Source of the DNA: an uncultured Gammaproteobacteria bacterium
GTDB lineage: Bacteria; Patescibacteriota; Microgenomatia; Daviesbacterales; UBA10151
DNA: 9,256 nt
Reading direction: 5' to 3'
NCBI GenBank assembly: GCA_964522265.1
Contig: CAZFVS010000036.1
Span: 1-9,256 of the forward strand
Shown: positions 2,269 to 8,044 of the stretch, one piece after another
How positions within the stretch are numbered: position 1 is the stretch's first letter
How the letters are laid out: each line of letters starts with the position of its first letter
Notes under the pieces: model-generated
Databases searched by the model: none
What the model was told of the DNA's origin: nothing
What the model saw: the letters and a program-made list of their open reading frames with translations, nothing else
Position numbers and translations under genes: made by a program

Positions 2269-2627
2269 AGTTTTAATCTCCTGAACTTTGAAAGTGTATG
2301 GATTTTTTTGTATTTTGTCAAACTTTGCCTTGCTGAGATAAAAAGAAAGAGTGTAATAAGAAAGGTAATTAAAAATGTGGCAAAATTAAATAGGTTAACA
2401 GCCCAAAGTACGATTATAAACATAAACCCCAATCCTAAAGCAAAACTACCTGGGGTATAGTTTAAAAATAGATTTATTAAGGTTGTAAAAAATAAGAGTA
2501 GGGGAACAAAAAAAACTAATATTTGGAATATTGATGCATTTTCCCAGGATAGAGGTGGCTCGATAAAGTAAACTATGAGCACAATTAAAACAAGACTAAG
2601 CAGCATAAAGAAAATTCTTTTTAACAT
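2265..2627 (-). CDS. small integral membrane protein (about 4 predicted TM segments), function unknown
   Basis: The 120-aa ORF is highly hydrophobic with several ~20-aa apolar stretches. Its stop overlaps the metG start (ATGA, 2265-2268), implying translational coupling. I recognise no family. Confidence 0.6.
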   Translation of the reverse strand: MLKRIFFMLLSLVLIVLIVYFIEPPLSWENASIFQILVFFVPLLLFFTTLINLFLNYTPGSFALGLGFMFIIVLWAVNLFNFATFLITFLITLFLFISARQSLTKYKKIHTLSKFRRLKL

Positions 2628-2679
2628 ATATGTATATTAATTTTAACCCAAATTTGACTTTTATGGTAAACTATTACAT

Positions 2680-2961
2680 ATGCGTGAAACTGAATACACT
2701 GGTTTTAACGATACTGCAGGATTAATCCCTGAGAAGATAAAAGAATTTCTTGATGTTTTAAAAAGAAAGTTATTCCCTGAAGATCCGGTTATTGCACAAG
2801 GGATATCGGAAGATCCTCTTACAGAAATGCAGAAATTATGCAAAATTATGCAAAATAATAGGGATTCTTACTATGCGCTACTATTTTCTAGGCGACTTTG
2901 GGTTTTATCGAAACAATTACCAAATTACTTAAAAAAAACCAGATCAGCTTCCAAGGCTTAA
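2680..2961 (+). CDS. hypothetical 93-aa protein
   Basis: This is the longest ORF in the interval; the competing minus-strand ORF 2661-2843 is shorter. There is no recognisable motif and no clear Shine-Dalgarno. Its TAA stop (2959-2961) is the first triplet of repeat copy 1. Confidence 0.4.
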   Translation: MRETEYTGFNDTAGLIPEKIKEFLDVLKRKLFPEDPVIAQGISEDPLTEMQKLCKIMQNNRDSYYALLFSRRLWVLSKQLPNYLKKTRSASKA

Positions 2962-3016
2962 ATTCCAATAATTTCAAAAGCAGAACCTCCTGGATTTTTT
3001 GAAACCTCAATTCTTA
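2959..3016. repeat. direct repeat copy 1 (detached duplicate of the sbcC 3' end)
   Basis: 2959-3011 is identical to 4561-4613 (53 nt: TAAATTCCAATAATTTCAAAAGCAGAACCTCCTGGATTTTTTGAAACCTCAAT). Partial identity continues to about 3016. The minus-strand reading gives K-L-RIEVSKNPGGSAFEIIGI*. Confidence 0.9.
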
Positions 3017-3038
3017 ATTTTGTGATATTATCAGACTT

Positions 3039-3359
3039 ATGATTTTGGCTACTGCTATTTCTAAAAATGGTGTGAAGGTGCGTTTAACTAAAGAGCGCTG
3101 GGAACATGTTATAAAAACACATCAAGAGATAGAAAAAAACGATTTTTCTAAATTTGTGAAAGTAATTTCTGAACCTGGGTTTATTCTTAAAGGGAATAAA
3201 GGAGAACTTTTAGCGATTAAAAAAGTACCTAGAAAAAAGCTATGGATTGTGGTACCATACAAAGAGTTAAGTAAACAAGATGGTTTTGTATTAACCGCTT
3301 ATTTTACAAGCGATTTATTTTGGTTGTTTAAAAAGGAGATGATATGGAGCAGGCAATAA
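3039..3359 (+). CDS. small toxin-like protein partnered with DUF2283 (DUF4258-like or related; family uncertain)
   Basis: The 106-aa ORF overlaps the downstream DUF2283 gene by 16 nt, a typical type II TA architecture. The pattern RLTKERWEHVIKTHQEI ... GFVLTAYFTS resembles small toxin families found beside DUF2283. The assignment is from memory only. Confidence 0.55.
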   Translation: MILATAISKNGVKVRLTKERWEHVIKTHQEIEKNDFSKFVKVISEPGFILKGNKGELLAIKKVPRKKLWIVVPYKELSKQDGFVLTAYFTSDLFWLFKKEMIWSRQ

Positions 3360-3586
3360 TTAATTCTGGAAAATTAGCAATACCTGATTTTATATATTTA
3401 GCCAAATATAGTCACGACCAATTATTTATTGATTATGATGAAGAGGCAGATGTTTTATATGTCAGTTTTGGTAAACCCCAAGCAGCTGATGACTCTGTTC
3501 ATGGGGAGGACGATATTATTAGAAGAAAAAAAAGGGAAAAAATTATTGGTTTAACAGTACTTAATGCCAGCCGTTTTAAGAAGTAA
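3344..3586 (+). CDS. DUF2283-family protein (putative antitoxin-like partner)
   Basis: YDEEADVLYVSFGKP ... KIIGLTVLNAS matches the DUF2283 signature (YD-x-E-x-D-x-LY-[IV] ... G-[IL]-x-[IV]-L-x-AS). A strong AAGGAG Shine-Dalgarno lies about 8 nt upstream of the ATG at 3344. Confidence 0.7.
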   Translation: MEQAIINSGKLAIPDFIYLAKYSHDQLFIDYDEEADVLYVSFGKPQAADDSVHGEDDIIRRKKREKIIGLTVLNASRFKK

Positions 3587-3679
3587 ACTTGGTGAGTTTC
3601 TCATCACATACCATAAGCAGAGTTGTTGGTAATCATATAAAAATTATATCAAAGCCAGGGTTTAATAAGCAAAGAATAC

Positions 3680-3871
3680 TTAAATTCCAATAATTTCAAA
3701 AGCAGAACCTCCAGCATTTTTTTGAAACTTCAATTCTGATTGGAAAGTTCTCTTTATGGTATTATTGGGCGGTTCAACACAATAAATAACAACACCCAAA
3801 ATAAGAGCAGAAAATACCACAAGGAAGATTTTTTTAAAATATGCATTTGATATATTGTATTGCATAAGCAT
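3680..3871 (-). CDS. chimeric 63-aa mini-ORF with a TM-helix N-terminus fused to a remnant of the SbcC C-terminus; possibly a non-functional junction ORF
   Basis: The C-terminal residues ...KNAGGSAFEIIGI* come from repeat copy 2. The N-terminal FKKIFLVVFSALILGVVIYCVEPP resembles LKRIFFMLLSLVLIVLIVYFIEPP of the 120-aa membrane protein at 2265-2627. No Shine-Dalgarno is seen, and only 23 nt separate it from the divergent 222-aa gene. Confidence 0.3.
   Translation of the reverse strand: MLMQYNISNAYFKKIFLVVFSALILGVVIYCVEPPNNTIKRTFQSELKFQKNAGGSAFEIIGI
3681..3752. repeat. direct repeat copy 2 (diverged remnant of the sbcC 3' end)
   Basis: 3681-3712 is identical to the first 32 nt of copies 1 and 3. 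After that it has AGCA where they have TGGA, and a T7 run where they have T6. It also has one 1-nt deletion and scattered substitutions. Similarity to sbcC sequence 4614-4632 is traceable to about 3752. Confidence 0.85.
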
Positions 3872-3894
3872 TTGTAGTTAAATGCTATTTGAGC

Positions 3895-4563
3895 ATGACT
3901 GAAAAATTAGCAGAAATATCAGAAAAAGACCTGCAGGATTATTTTGGAGATAATACGGCTAAAGGCAGAGTCTATTTAGACGGCGAAACTCCATTTTTGC
4001 AACTTCATAAATTTGCAGATGTTTATACTCTTTTTTGGAGAAGCAAGCCCGAAGATAAAATCTTGAGAGACCTGACACCTAAATTACACGAAGAAGTTAT
4101 CAGAAACCAAAATGCTCACTTTGAGGAGCTACCGATATCGATCAGGTTTGCAGTTTTAGAGACAGTAAGAAACAGTGGAAAGATGGAAAGGCTTACCGGG
4201 GTAAGAAAATATTATAAGGTTGATAGGTTAAAACCGGAATCTTTCGGTAAGAAAATCGGAACTTTCCTTGATAAAAACCTTTCAGCTGCAGTTTCACTTC
4301 TCACAAGATTAAGCGTTGACCCTGCATCACCCTACCAACCACACATTTTGTCTTTTTGGACGGGCACAAAGAGATTTTCAAATAAAAATATAGAAACAGG
4401 ATTAATGGTTGCTTATGGGCCGTGTCTGCCAAGGGAATCTTTAAGGGAGCTATTATCTAAAACATCGCCTTTTTTTGGAAAAATAGGAGAAACTGCAACA
4501 GAATCTTTTGTAGAAAAATTAATTGCAGAGCAGGGTCTAAACGTAAGATTTACTCGAGGCTAA
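3895..4563 (+). CDS. hypothetical 222-aa protein, no recognisable family (orphan cargo of cassette B)
   Basis: A long ORF (track 3889-4563 with a TTG start; ATG at 3895 preferred). Its composition looks soluble and mixed alpha/beta. No catalytic or nucleotide-binding motif is recognisable by eye. The TAA stop (4561-4563) is the first triplet of repeat copy 3 and overlaps the sbcC stop. Confidence 0.6.
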   Translation: MTEKLAEISEKDLQDYFGDNTAKGRVYLDGETPFLQLHKFADVYTLFWRSKPEDKILRDLTPKLHEEVIRNQNAHFEELPISIRFAVLETVRNSGKMERLTGVRKYYKVDRLKPESFGKKIGTFLDKNLSAAVSLLTRLSVDPASPYQPHILSFWTGTKRFSNKNIETGLMVAYGPCLPRESLRELLSKTSPFFGKIGETATESFVEKLIAEQGLNVRFTRG

Positions 4564-6788
4564 ATTCCAATAATTTCAAAAGCAGAACCTCCTGGATTTT
4601 TTGAAACCTCAATCCTGACTGGGAATTCTTCTTTTAGCTCCTCCAGATGGGTAATAATCAAAATTTTCTCAAAATCATCTTTTATGGTATCAATTACTCC
4701 AACCAGTTTTGCTCTGCCTGTTGCATCCTGGGTTCCAAAACCTTCATCAATTATCAAAAACTGCAGTTTCGCCCCGGCTCTGTTTGCTAAAAGTTTGGAG
4801 ATGGCGAGCCTTAATGCAAAGTTCACCCTGAAAGTTTCTCCTCCTGAATATAGCTCATACGGCCGCTCGCCCATCTCATCAGAGATAATAATATCCAAGG
4901 TTTCAACAGTTGCATGGATTTTTCCCTCTAGAGTTTGCACTTTGGTTTTAGTTTCTTTTTGCGTTTCCAATGCAACCTTCATCCTGCCTTCTGTAAGTTT
5001 ATCCAATAAATTATTTGCTTCCTCCTCAATTTCAGGAATTGCAGATTCAATAATCATCGCCTGTATCCCTTTTTTGCCAAACGCTAAAGCCAGTTCTTCA
5101 AACGCTTCTTTTTCTTTTGATAAATTGCTTTTTTCCTCACTTTTTTGTTTTAGCAGTTTTGCCATTTGCTGGGCCCGGTCAATTAATTGTTTAGCTTGGC
5201 CTTCCTGGCCGGTTAGCTCTAACAATTTTTGGTTTAGTTCTTCCCTGGTGGAAACTTGAGTTTGCAGGCGGTTTTGGATCTTAGCTAGTTTTTCCGAATA
5301 GACCTCCAAGTCGGTTTGAGAATTTTTGGCTTTTTCAAACTCATGTTTTTTGGCCAGATACATCTTTTCTAAATCAACTAAAGTTTCCTGGTGGGTTTTG
5401 ACAGCCACCTCAGCTTGCTGGAGTTTTAAATAACCTTCTTGAAAACGGTCCAGCTCACTGATTTGTTTGGAAATTTCAAAATAGTCTTTAGTCTCTAGTT
5501 CCAGTTTTTTGGCTTCCTGCCCGTTTTCCTTAGCTTGAGCTGCTTCAGGCAAAATGATTGATTTAAATTTTTTAATTTTTGAGTAAAAATTGATTAGCTC
5601 CGCTTTATTTTTGTCTATTTCACTATTATTTTTGCCAATCAATTCTTTGTTTTTTTCTGCACCAATTGGTTGACCGCAAGTCGGGCAGACCGTTTTTTGT
5701 TCCATTAACCTTTTGTTTTGGTTTGCCAGCTGATCACATTTTGTTTCAAATTCTTTAATTAAAACTTCTAAAGCGGAGATAGCTTGTTTTCTTTTATCTT
5801 CCCGCTCATTAATAATTTTTTCTAAAGTTGCCAGTTCGTCTTTGACTTTGATCAGTTCACTCCGTTTTGTATCTAAAACTTTTTTTTGGTCCTGCAGCTT
5901 GAGAAGTTTTTGGTAGTTTGTTTCAATCAGCTCTTTTTTGTCTAAAATCTGTTGATATTCTTTGGCGGCTTTTTCTTTTAGATCTATTTTTAGCCTTAGA
6001 TCCAGAACTTCTTGATTTAAGTTTTCAAACTGTTTTTTTTGTTTTTGTAGAGTTTTTACAGTTACTTCAATAGCCTGTTTTTTCTGGTCGATGTTTTTTA
6101 TTATCTCCTCAATTTCTTTTACATCGCGTTTCGCTTTTTCTACCTCTTGCTGGATTAGGGAATATTTTTTTTCTCTTTCTATTTTTTGAGAAAGCTCGGC
6201 TTCAATTTCTAATAGTTGATAATCCAGTAATGTCAATTTGGTCTGTAACTCCTTGGTTTTTTCTCTGGCTTTTTCCTCTAGCCTGTCGTAATGGTCCAGT
6301 CCTAAGATATCTGCCAGGATTCTTTTTCTGTCAGTTGGGCCTTTGGTTGTAAACTCATCAGCATGACCTTGTCTCAGATATGCGGAGTTGCAAAAAGTCT
6401 CAAAATTTAAATGGAGCGTTTCAATAATCTTTTGCTGGGTTGATTTAATAGTTCCTTCCGTTAAATTGTATGTACCTGACCAGAACTCTAAAGAAGTATG
6501 TCCGCCAGATTTTTTATTTCTGTTTCTTTTAATAATGTAACTGTGTCCGTCCAGTTCAAAAGAAAATTCTACCAACATCTCATTTTGGCCCAGTTTCACA
6601 AGATCATCTGATGAATCGCCGGCTCTGGAGGAGCCCCAAACACACCAGGTGATAGCATCAAGCAAAGAGGATTTTCCCGCGCCATTTAAGCCCGAGATAG
6701 CAGCCAGTTTGAACTTGGTAAAATCCAGCTCAGGTGGACTTTCCCCGTAACTTGTGAAATTAGATAACTTAAGATTTACAGGAATCAT
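4560..6788 (-). CDS. sbcC: SbcC/Rad50-family DNA repair ATPase (nuclease SbcCD subunit C)
   Basis: Walker A is GLNGAGKSS near the N-terminus. A long K/E/Q/L-rich coiled coil carries a central CPTCGQP zinc hook (CxxC at 5676-5687). The C-terminal ABC signature YSGGETFRV, Walker B LQFLIIDEGFG and H-loop IITHLEEL are present. The start overlaps the sbcD stop (ATGA, 6785-6788). Confidence 0.9.
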   Translation of the reverse strand: MIPVNLKLSNFTSYGESPPELDFTKFKLAAISGLNGAGKSSLLDAITWCVWGSSRAGDSSDDLVKLGQNEMLVEFSFELDGHSYIIKRNRNKKSGGHTSLEFWSGTYNLTEGTIKSTQQKIIETLHLNFETFCNSAYLRQGHADEFTTKGPTDRKRILADILGLDHYDRLEEKAREKTKELQTKLTLLDYQLLEIEAELSQKIEREKKYSLIQQEVEKAKRDVKEIEEIIKNIDQKKQAIEVTVKTLQKQKKQFENLNQEVLDLRLKIDLKEKAAKEYQQILDKKELIETNYQKLLKLQDQKKVLDTKRSELIKVKDELATLEKIINEREDKRKQAISALEVLIKEFETKCDQLANQNKRLMEQKTVCPTCGQPIGAEKNKELIGKNNSEIDKNKAELINFYSKIKKFKSIILPEAAQAKENGQEAKKLELETKDYFEISKQISELDRFQEGYLKLQQAEVAVKTHQETLVDLEKMYLAKKHEFEKAKNSQTDLEVYSEKLAKIQNRLQTQVSTREELNQKLLELTGQEGQAKQLIDRAQQMAKLLKQKSEEKSNLSKEKEAFEELALAFGKKGIQAMIIESAIPEIEEEANNLLDKLTEGRMKVALETQKETKTKVQTLEGKIHATVETLDIIISDEMGERPYELYSGGETFRVNFALRLAISKLLANRAGAKLQFLIIDEGFGTQDATGRAKLVGVIDTIKDDFEKILIITHLEELKEEFPVRIEVSKNPGGSAFEIIGI
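4561..4616. repeat. direct repeat copy 3 (the functional 3' end of sbcC)
   Basis: Identical to copy 1 over 4561-4613. It is contiguous with the sbcC reading frame (...VRIEVSKNPGGSAFEIIGI, stop TAG at 4560-4562 on the minus strand). Confidence 0.9.
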
Positions 6789-8044
6789 TCTAAGATCTGT
6801 TTTGCAAATTCTCCTAACTGTTTTTGTTTTTCTTCTGAGAATTTTTTAGTTTCAAAATATTTTTTTAAAGCATCTATAGGTGTTAGACTTTCCACTTCAT
6901 TGGTCCCCTCCAGTCTTTGGCGCTCGCGTCTTTCGATATTCCTTGAGATGCCTGCAATAACGTGAGCATCGGATAAAGCTTTTTTAACCTGATCCATCTT
7001 TATCTCTTCCTCACAACCTGCTGGGATATTAATAATCACCCTGATAATTTTTTCTTTTGTATCTGATTTTTTTATTTCATCTAAAATAGTTTGGGTGGGG
7101 TCTTTGTCCTCAGGGGAAAGTGAAACAGTGATGGTTAGAAATTGTCTGGCGTTGGTGGGGATAAACTGGTAAGAGGCTTGCCAGTTTGTCATCCCGGATT
7201 TAATCCGGGATCCAGCACTTGAACTATTTTTCTGGATTCCCGCCTGCCTGCCGGCAAGGCAGGCTTCCGCGGGAATGGCAGAAGACAGTTGGTTAATATC
7301 TACCAATATGACTCCTTTTTCTTCTTTTTCTTCACCAAAATCTATCCTGTGAGGGGAGCCAGCATAAACAACTAATGGATTTTTTGATAAAACTTGGTGT
7401 TTGTGGATATGGCCTAAAGCAACATAGGAGAGTCTTCTGTCTTGAATTAAAGATAAGGGGATTGTGACATCATTTTGGATAGCCATGCCTTTTTCTGAGC
7501 CAAAAGATGCTCCTTCTACTTCAGCATGGGATAGAAAAATAGCTGGGCCGCCAGCTGGCGGAGGTTTAATTTTGTCATATAAAGACAGAAGTTTTTCCCC
7601 GACAGATTTGTAGTCATTTTTATGCAGCCAAGGAAGGGTGATGACCTGTAAATTTCCAGATTTGGTAGGGATATTGAGAAGCTCTGGTTTTCTTGAGACA
7701 TAAACATTATCAATCTCCAAAGCTGAATAAATATCTAAAGTATTTGCTCGGCCTTCTGCATTAGGGGTGTCATGGTTACCTACCACCAAAACTACAGGCA
7801 TATACTTGGTAGCTTTTTTAACCCTTTCACCAAAACCTCTTTGCTGGGTTGGGTTAGGATCGCGGGTTTTATAGGCATCACCTGCAAAAATTAAAGCATC
7901 ACATCCTTCTTTGATAGCAGTATCAACTATGAAATCAAAAGTTTTAAAAAAATCGAGTAACCTGGTAGATAATCCGCTCTGAGGGTCAAGCTTGGAATAA
8001 TTTTCCATGCCGATATGGATATCAGCAAAATGCAGAAGCCTCAT
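6785..8044 (-). CDS. sbcD: SbcD/Mre11-family nuclease (nuclease SbcCD subunit D) carrying an in-frame inserted repeat
   Basis: All calcineurin-like phosphoesterase motifs are present in order: HFADIHIG, FAGDAYK, VVGNHD, LSHAEV, LGHIHKHQ. The gene is translationally coupled to sbcC. Residues about 254-288 are encoded by the palindromic element at 7187-7280. Confidence 0.9.
   Translation of the reverse strand: MRLLHFADIHIGMENYSKLDPQSGLSTRLLDFFKTFDFIVDTAIKEGCDALIFAGDAYKTRDPNPTQQRGFGERVKKATKYMPVVLVVGNHDTPNAEGRANTLDIYSALEIDNVYVSRKPELLNIPTKSGNLQVITLPWLHKNDYKSVGEKLLSLYDKIKPPPAGGPAIFLSHAEVEGASFGSEKGMAIQNDVTIPLSLIQDRRLSYVALGHIHKHQVLSKNPLVVYAGSPHRIDFGEEKEEKGVILVDINQLSSAIPAEACLAGRQAGIQKNSSSAGSRIKSGMTNWQASYQFIPTNARQFLTITVSLSPEDKDPTQTILDEIKKSDTKEKIIRVIINIPAGCEEEIKMDQVKKALSDAHVIAGISRNIERRERQRLEGTNEVESLTPIDALKKYFETKKFSEEKQKQLGEFAKQILE
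7187..7280. repeat. GC-rich nested palindromic (MITE/REP-like) element inserted in frame in sbcD
   Basis: ATCCCGGATTTAATCCGGGAT (7191-7211) is a 21-nt perfect palindrome. ATCCAG (7210-7215) pairs with CTGGAT (7232-7237). An outer stem ATTCCCGC (7236-7243) / GCGGGAAT (7269-7276) encloses an inner stem CTGCCT (7244-7249) / AGGCAG (7257-7262). The ends are imperfectly inverted (TGTCATCCC vs GGGAATGGCA). Its composition contrasts sharply with the AT-rich flanks. Confidence 0.65.

Follow-up and report, generated by a model that had tools for sequence, protein, structure and literature searches.

How can small accessory genes become stacked between two housekeeping genes, parted by copies of the end of one of them, where no mobile-element machinery is in sight? 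This question is raised by a stretch of 9,256 nucleotides (nt) (GenBank assembly GCA_964522265.1, contig CAZFVS010000036.1), referred to here as the window, which is the entire contig of a metagenome-assembled genome (MAG) of Candidatus Daviesbacteria, a member of the candidate phyla radiation (CPR/Patescibacteria). On its minus strand the window carries sbcC (4560-6788), which encodes an SMC-family ATPase of 742 amino acids (aa), and, further along, a gene for a 120-aa membrane protein (memb, 2265-2627) that forms an operon with the methionyl-tRNA synthetase gene metG (853-2268), the two overlapping by 4 nt; comparison of homologues identifies metG as the conserved right flank. Between sbcC and memb, on the plus strand, stand the orphan gene ORF224, a toxin-like gene paired with a DUF2283 gene, and the orphan gene ORF93, and among them lie repeats of the sbcC 3' end. 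On balance we consider it somewhat probable that these repeats are scraps of flanking genes left by homology-guided swaps, and that homology-anchored, partly illegitimate recombination has stacked alternative alleles of a hotspot at this position.

The sbcC 3' end is present in three copies, all on the minus strand. Copy 3 (4561-4616) is the functional end of the gene, as shown by comparison of the repeats with the open reading frames (ORFs) and by the Pfam domains of the ORF at 4560-6788 (AAA_23, SbcC_Walker_B and the Rad50 zinc hook), which has more than 120 homologues in Daviesbacteria. Copy 1 (2959-3014), a 56-nt piece with the toxin promoter region upstream and the ORF93 stop codon downstream, comprises the last 18 sbcC codons and the stop; it encodes RIEVSKNPGGSAFEIIGI* with AGA where sbcC has AGG and is identical to the window's own sbcC end at 52 of 53 positions, stop codon excluded. 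A string of 53 nt matches perfectly between 2959-3011 and 4561-4613, and the match extends to 56 nt (2959-3014 and 4561-4616) if one mismatch is allowed. Copy 2 (3681-3763) shares with the other two a core corresponding to the last 32 nt of the gene, which occurs three times on the same strand of the window as against no expected occurrence (200 shuffles). Beyond this core copy 2 shows substitutions and a run of six T expanded to seven, and its homology to sbcC reaches about 3757-3763, roughly 78 nt in all; in the sbcC frame it reads KENFPIRIEVSK, one extra A, NAGGSAFEIIGI*, a change in a homopolymer of A/T being the sole indel needed. The first TAA of a repeat copy serves as stop codon for both ORFs 2680-2961 and 3889-4563. 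These perfect identities of 53 and 32 nt point to recent exchange or gene conversion among the copies and render the array deletable, since recombination between copies would remove 1,602 or 880 nt and leave SbcC unaltered. An earlier reading of the letters alone (the sequence-only reading) had described the 53-nt repeat, the common orientation and sbcC origin of the copies, the true gene end in copy 3, the preserved coding of copy 1, the stop codons supplied by repeats and the harmlessness for SbcC of recombination between copies 1 and 3, all of which are borne out; its outline of copy 2 was right as to the exact start, the substitutions and the T run, but placed the end at 3752, too early.

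Comparison with relatives establishes that the site is an accessory one. A scan of a genome collection recovered 80 sbcC loci, 54 of them syntenic (sbcD-sbcC-memb-metG), and the first three relatives fetched already displayed sbcD-sbcC, 18 nt, a memb gene of about 125 codons and metG. Distances between the sbcC stop and the metG start are bimodally distributed, at 385-491 nt in 28 of the 54 loci and at 700-2,900 nt in the other 26; the former loci are empty, with memb alone between sbcC and metG and sbcC abutting memb. In about 22 loci extra genes stand between sbcC and memb, nearly all antisense to sbcC, and the stop codon of the cargo very often overlaps that of sbcC by 4 nt. Across the loci with enlarged gaps the cargo falls into 48 clusters, which include DUF5674 with a 94-aa partner (five genomes), HigB/Gp49 with a helix-turn-helix protein, retropepsin-like with DUF5678, NUDIX, CDGSH, Bro-N and cupredoxin proteins, and many orphans. 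Pfam searches of all ORFs of the window and of 30 cargo proteins from 26 occupied loci detected no recombinase or transposase, which agrees with the sequence-only reading for the window and extends its observation to the occupied sites examined. The boundary between sbcC and memb is thus a recombination hotspot flanked by core genes, with empty and alternative states, and the 1.9 kb between the two genes in the window is accessory, as that reading had proposed when it called for a comparison of relatives. A second hotspot lies between sbcD and sbcC, where the spacing among relatives ranges from -3 to 3,193 nt (L004-L083; related contigs are cited by such L numbers), with an insert of about 400 nt in many loci and 1-3 kb of toxin-antitoxin modules in several, and where the window (6785-6788) is empty. 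A free-standing LAGLIDADG ORF was also seen between memb and metG (L020:6998-7834), and some SbcC homologues (P0065 and P0067, 1,213-1,217 aa) bear an intein and LAGLIDADG homing-endonuclease domains.

What has been added to the window's own lineage can be read from its nearest available relative at this locus, GCA_016186955.1, whose SbcD is 78% identical in amino acids as against at most 70% for all others. Two of its contigs, L049 (which ends in ORF224) and L088, share an exact overlap of 141 nt and when joined give the order sbcD-...-sbcC-ORF224 (antisense)-memb-metG-tatD, with only ORF224 between sbcC and memb. Positions 3764-4329 of the window, covering the 5' part of ORF224, the intergenic region and the first 28 codons of memb, are 90.65% identical to L088 9869-10435. 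This homology ends with ...CCGCCCAAT at 3764 and resumes at 2549 (TCCTGGGAAAATGCATC..., 39 of 40 positions) within the resident memb, so that relative to GCA_016186955.1 the window holds a single extra block of 1,214 nt (2550-3763), whose point of insertion is codon 28 of memb. Read in the direction of sbcC, it comprises copy 2 (78 nt of another sbcC end), a 94-nt spacer, the DUF2283/PBECR3-like pair, copy 1, ORF93, a promoter region and a memb 5' end that provides 26 replacement codons (codons 1-26 of the resident gene, 2550-2627); GC makes up 30-33% of it and 38-42% of the flanks. The block is an entire hotspot allele that came from another lineage together with about 78 nt of either flank. 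The repeats therefore do not delimit two cassettes, A and B, as had been thought, because ORF224 already adjoins sbcC in the relative and copy 2 is the left end of the block. The right joint (2549/2550) is in register with memb, which indicates homology there, while the left joint (3763/3764, CCCAAT|AATACC) is novel and fuses memb to position -78 of sbcC, with a possible AAT overlap at 3761-3766. The old memb 5' end was thereby left behind next to the intergenic region (3764-3888, minus strand), where a -10 box, TACAAT, at 3854-3859 and the native ATG at 3846 can still be found; it matches the memb N-termini of L024 and L048 (tblastn) and has lost 1 nt in an A-run. The 63-aa ORF at 3680-3871, whose N-terminus it forms, is a pseudogene in which this orphaned end is fused out of frame to copy 2, and annotators should be warned that ORFs of this kind are fusion pseudogenes. 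The L049/L088 overlap, a break in a k-mer graph, lies inside ORF224, which suggests strain-level polymorphism at the hotspot in the GCA_016186955.1 sample.

The flanking genes are themselves mosaic. Within the resident memb, close identity to the relative is confined to 2505-2549, the remainder being about 65-74% identical, and downstream of 2505 the window differs again from L088 to that same extent. MetG is 42% identical in amino acids to that of L088 and 77% to that of L005, while the last 100 nt or so of metG are 82% identical in nucleotides to L088; at least two very different metG types occupy one syntenic position among the syntenic Daviesbacteria. It is ambiguous whether the differing region past 2505 reflects a second replacement or a single mosaic event that did both. 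The parts of sbcC that encode the ATPase heads have nucleotide identities of 0.76-0.91 to L049, whereas its coiled coil (window about 5190-6240) reaches only 0.29-0.53, below any other relative, which suggests that the coiled coil was swapped by recombination inside the gene. The nearest relatives are accordingly discordant between sbcD, the sbcC heads, the sbcC coiled coil and metG. Horizontal transfer of ORF224 had been considered on the basis of its 85% match to L049 when SbcC showed only 57%, and was dropped once L049 was recognised as the nearest relative minus the swapped coiled coil.

Scraps of the sbcC end are not peculiar to the window. Self-searches and an nhmmer profile of sbcC ends identified extra direct fragments of 14-78 nt in at least seven other lineages, all of which end at the stop codon and differ in their upstream ends. 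L014 has two (28 and about 47-58 nt), and single fragments occur in L067 (about 36-50 nt), L070 (30-34 nt), L020 (24 nt) and L041 (14-16 nt), together with a 44-nt scar in L027 and fragments of 22-25 nt directly upstream of memb in L048 and L013. In the DUF5674 cassette, common to L013, L014, L017, L041 and L067, both ends are sharp: one coincides with the sbcC stop and the other falls about 18 nt ahead of the cassette's ATG. The sbcC fragments attached to this cassette start at about -58, -50, -25 or -5, depending on the genome, and these four joints argue against a site-specific recombinase, which would give one. Several fragments are nearer to sbcC ends of other lineages than to their own, namely that of L070 (24 of 27 positions against 19 of 27), that of L020 (19 of 21 against 15 of 21) and likewise that of L067, which indicates that flank pieces travel between genomes. 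A comparable architecture exists elsewhere: in L033 a 63-nt repeat of the sbcD end flanks a DUF433/PIN pair within the sbcD-sbcC insert (L033:6808-9900), and in L030 (8160-9327) HicAB and DUF433/PIN cassettes are parted by a composite joint, R2|R1, in which 37 nt of the PIN gene 3' end run directly into 42 nt copied from the region upstream of the array, with the same succession of right flank and left flank as at window 3763/3764. Both cases speak against an enzyme specific for sbcC. Conservation over the last 80 nt of sbcC does not exceed that of the 260 nt before them, and scans for the core with a degenerate SAFEIIGI* pattern gave four chance matches in metagenomes, one of them inside recO of an unrelated bacterium, and none in viral contigs. 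The L033 insert also holds a 327-aa reverse-transcriptase-like ORF beside a pair of 108-nt repeats with 85% identity, which resembles the template and variable repeats of a diversity-generating retroelement, and L035:7152-7731 has a similar 112-nt pair. In L014, adjacent paralogues of 226 and 270 aa have an identical 62-nt 5' end (696-757 and 1531-1592, MYFDFAQYEGNFLLRNKQKG) and different bodies, and may be another case of stacked alternative alleles.

A constraint on any insertion at this site seems to reside in the sbcC end itself. In 20 of the 28 empty sites the sequence TTGAAG, a spacing of 16 nt, TACAAT or TAAAAT and a further 4 to 9 nt precede the memb start, an arrangement met at 25 of 2,000 random positions. 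TTGAAG represents Phe-Glu codons of sbcC and the -10 box starts 2 nt past the sbcC stop, so the last 27 nt or so of sbcC would also be the -35 box and spacer of a predicted leaderless promoter for memb-metG. An insertion that spares both SbcC and this promoter must duplicate these nucleotides, which explains the remnants beside memb in L048 and L013. The internal copies of the sbcC end have no -10 box after them and are scars. The cassettes, on the other hand, are unlikely to be promoterless. In contrast to the apparent lack of a promoter noted by the sequence-only reading, an extended -10-like box, TGATATTAT (3023-3031, plus strand, a pattern match only), stands 7 nt before the toxin ATG and by its position implies a leaderless transcript. 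The same layout, TGnTAnnnT, about 7 nt and ATG, is shared by the toxin gene, the DUF5674 cassette of five genomes (with TGGTAAAAT-like boxes) and memb, and by pattern a TGGTAAACT box at 2664-2672 precedes the ORF93 ATG by 7 nt. A generic promoter scan returned no more sites than in shuffled sequence and is uninformative in DNA this rich in A and T.

Taken together, these observations can be accommodated as follows. ORF224, the DUF2283/PBECR3-like pair and ORF93 would be three alternative alleles of the hotspot stacked head to tail, each a compact module with its own -10 box, antisense to sbcC and ending on the sbcC stop codon. DNA from related strains, once taken up, would recombine with the chromosome by one-sided homology, in sbcC on the left or in memb-metG on the right, while the other end of the incoming fragment would be joined illegitimately, either by homology-facilitated illegitimate recombination (HFIR) or by Campbell-type insertion of a circularised fragment through general recombination of the host. 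The incoming fragment would bring its own piece of flank and the resident piece would stay with its old neighbour; pieces thus brought and kept would leave the sbcC 3' end and, in one instance, the memb 5' end repeated in short direct copies. The fragments would stay short, since a more extensive match to sbcC would result in ordinary allele replacement and direct repeats of greater length would soon be deleted, and copies adjoining memb would be maintained by selection for the predicted -35 box that they contain. The variable joints, the block bounded by memb, the pairing of an in-register with a novel joint, the foreign scraps, the mosaic flanks and the lack of a recombinase all favour host recombination over an integrase. 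Saccharibacteria have been shown to be naturally competent and to recombine DNA through homologous flanks, and com genes are reported to be conserved throughout the CPR (PMC10633639). The HFIR process is defined in PMC3240628.

Several points weigh against this interpretation. Any microhomology at the illegitimate joints is conjectural, and so is competence in Daviesbacteria. The 53 nt of perfect identity between copies 1 and 3, which stand on either side of a composite of different ages, call for an extra step, either gene conversion or a very recent event within the population. The duplicated sbcC fragments are all shorter than 80 nt, direct and end exactly at the stop codon, and in at least seven gene families the cargo stops at -4; such regularity could reflect a dedicated mechanism. 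Finally, because the window is unlike its nearest relative past 2505, the number and order of events are ambiguous.

Among the other explanations, an in-situ tandem duplication with one end about 78 nt within sbcC and the other at codon 28 of memb, followed by replacement of the cargo by double crossover, is doubtful, although it survives best. It predicts exactly the joint of memb 5' end and sbcC 3' end seen at 3763/3764, the R2|R1 joint of L030 obeys the same logic, and recombination in the flanks is evident. Against it, identity is 91% between the relative and ORF224 with the old memb 5' end but only about 55-60% between the two memb 5' copies, so the two units do not stem from one recent duplication; it also demands more steps than direct insertion of a foreign allele, and copy 1 has no memb remnant beside it.

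Site-specific integration, in which a tyrosine or serine recombinase encoded in trans would use the sbcC 3' end as attB and circular cassettes would bring a replacement sbcC end in their attP, tandem events building the array as in tRNA/tmRNA islands or recombinase-less elements at rlmH that resemble the staphylococcal cassette chromosome (SCC), is unlikely. It would account for direct repeats that restore the target gene, copy 3 completing sbcC, for empty sites and different cargo in relatives, for sbcC-end repeats that are always direct and always end at the stop in at least seven lineages, and for tight cassette ends whose stop codons come from the repeat. But no recombinase is found in the window or at the roughly 26 occupied sites, the junction wanders from -5 to -78 and varies even within one cassette family, the block that bears copies 1 and 2 is bounded by memb instead of a repeat, and like patterns exist at the unrelated sequences of the sbcD end and the L030 joint. 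The core, moreover, has neither dyad symmetry nor a stable hairpin, and the sbcC end is not distinguished by its conservation. The insertion of two elements at one specific site in the sbcC 3' end, which the sequence-only reading had put forward, does not fit the absence of a fixed crossover (-58, -50, -25, -5) or the memb-bounded block.

A further idea, also improbable and a long shot, is that leaderless gene modules of CPR bacteria are fused to gene-end tags that act as portable sites for an enzyme in trans or for a host pathway working on short homology; the tags would be those fragments of less than 80 nt that end at the stop, the insertion point would combine the sbcC end with the memb promoter, and the arrays at sbcD would be analogous. 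If it were true, such a dedicated tag-based system would be an integron lacking an integrase gene, as it were, and a new kind of gene-cassette platform.

Least probable by far is an assembly artefact, that is, concatenation of the different cargo of co-existing strains at shared k-mers of the 53-nt core, since, although an exact repeat of 53 nt is within the common range of assembler k-mers, the contig is short and from a MAG with no second assembly on record, and the assembly of the relative is interrupted within ORF224 by a k=141 overlap that signals strain variation at the locus, the joints of memb with copy 2 and of the toxin promoter with copy 1 share no sequence that a graph could traverse, copy 2 is diverged with indels and hence no collapsed k-mer, and equivalent arrays occur in independent assemblies from different assemblers (L014, k141; L067 and L070, NODE-type and others), which leaves a mis-join at copy 1 alone as the possible form of such an error.

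Some narrower candidates were rejected. An attC-like or terminator hairpin was not supported by single-strand DNA folds of the three copies on both strands (z from -1.2 to +0.3), and the inverted repeat TTTCAAAA...TTTTGAAA is explained by S-K and F-E codons of the conserved peptide. An origin of the units of cargo and tag from transcripts (cDNA) is contradicted by their inclusion of a -10 box upstream of the start, and dif-type integration is ruled out by sequence architecture and gene orientation.

How does the locus compare with known systems? Chromosomal hotspots bordered by core genes exchange their accessory genes through homologous recombination in the bordering sequences; chromosomal hotspots of recombination and integration were reportedly surveyed by Oliveira, Touchon, Cury and Rocha (Nat Commun, 2017). 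The present site shares with these hotspots conserved flanks, empty and varied sites, small cargo without mobility genes and mosaic flanking genes, and differs in that alleles are stacked in tandem, parted by flank scraps of 14-78 nt, and in that the left flank overlaps the promoter of the right one. We know of no description of such tandem stacking with flank scraps for CPR bacteria. HFIR in natural transformation, which de Vries and Wackernagel are said to have described in 2002, offers a parallel in its one in-register joint (2549/2550), its one novel joint (3763/3764), about 1.2 kb of foreign DNA and no need for a dedicated enzyme; unlike it, the events here are deduced from genome comparison only, and recipient DNA, usually deleted in HFIR, has been kept, with duplication as the result. 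Integrase islands reside in the 3' ends of tRNA/tmRNA or protein genes, and SCC and pseudo-SCC elements at rlmH (orfX), where Ccr acts in trans. They resemble the locus in the direct repeats of the target 3' end, the restored target, the tandem arrays and the units without recombinase, but here there is no recombinase nearby and no fixed core or crossover, one boundary lies in the neighbouring gene and the units measure 0.7-0.9 kb. In integron arrays, too, a repeated element parts small cassettes that share one orientation and hold one or two genes each, often a toxin-antitoxin pair, whereas this locus has no intI, attI or Pc, its repeats are fragments of a housekeeping gene and not attC-like hairpins, and its cassettes have apparent -10 boxes of their own. 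The likeness to integron cassettes seen by the sequence-only reading is therefore not sustained, the window also lacking a tyrosine recombinase. Integrative mobile elements exploiting Xer (IMEX), or dif modules, which use the host XerCD, are also recombinase-less tandem units bounded by repeats of a chromosomal site; unlike them, the locus has no 11-6-11 architecture, its repeat is in a coding region and its joints are variable, and the co-orientation of genes on both sides shows that it is not a terminus. The locus is most aptly classed as a new case of a recombination hotspot flanked by core genes, from a CPR bacterium and with unusually legible scars, and not as integron-like or as an integrase island.

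As such, it provides a sequence-level picture of how small accessory genes are exchanged in streamlined Patescibacteria without visible mobile-element machinery, with a turnover of toxin-antitoxin pairs and orphan genes at a single site between essential genes, and with the end of a housekeeping gene that is predicted to double as the promoter of the neighbouring operon. The flank scraps record single recombination events and are natural markers with which such events may be counted and ordered in metagenomes.

Regarding the cargo itself, ORF224 (3889-4563, plus strand; probable start ATG at 3895) is convergent with sbcC, their stop codons overlapping; it has no match in Pfam, NCBIfam, PADLOC or PDB, and its sole homologue is a partial protein at the same position in GCA_016186955.1 (87-91% nucleotide identity). 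The toxin-like small protein (3039-3359, plus strand) shows a weak match to PBECR3, a BECR-fold nuclease family (PF18812, E=9e-5, 22.8 bits, short of the cut-off of 30), and its gene overlaps by 16 nt that of the DUF2283 protein (3344-3586, plus strand; PF10049, 39.2 bits against a cut-off of 23), a putative antitoxin partner; PADLOC, NCBIfam and PDB gave no support for the pair. The spacer at 3587-3680 (94 nt), which contains no ORF according to the sequence and the ORF list, may be what is left of an earlier cargo gene after truncation; it matched no RNA family, and Rfam at E<=1 found nothing in the window as a whole. ORF93 (2680-2961, plus strand, from the ORF list) has no homologue among 5.8 billion proteins, and exact look-ups of the window's SbcC, toxin and ORF93 on other contigs gave nothing. 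Outside the hotspot, the window's SbcD contains at about 7160-7360 a lineage-specific insertion of about 65 aa (…SSAIPAEACLAGRQAGIQKNSSSAGSRIKSGMTNWQAS…) that aligns poorly to all relatives, and at the position that tatD occupies in relatives, convergent with metG, there is a gene for a DUF5666 protein (112-849) with an acidic Lys/Glu-rich region arising from 21-nt tandem repeats (368-425).

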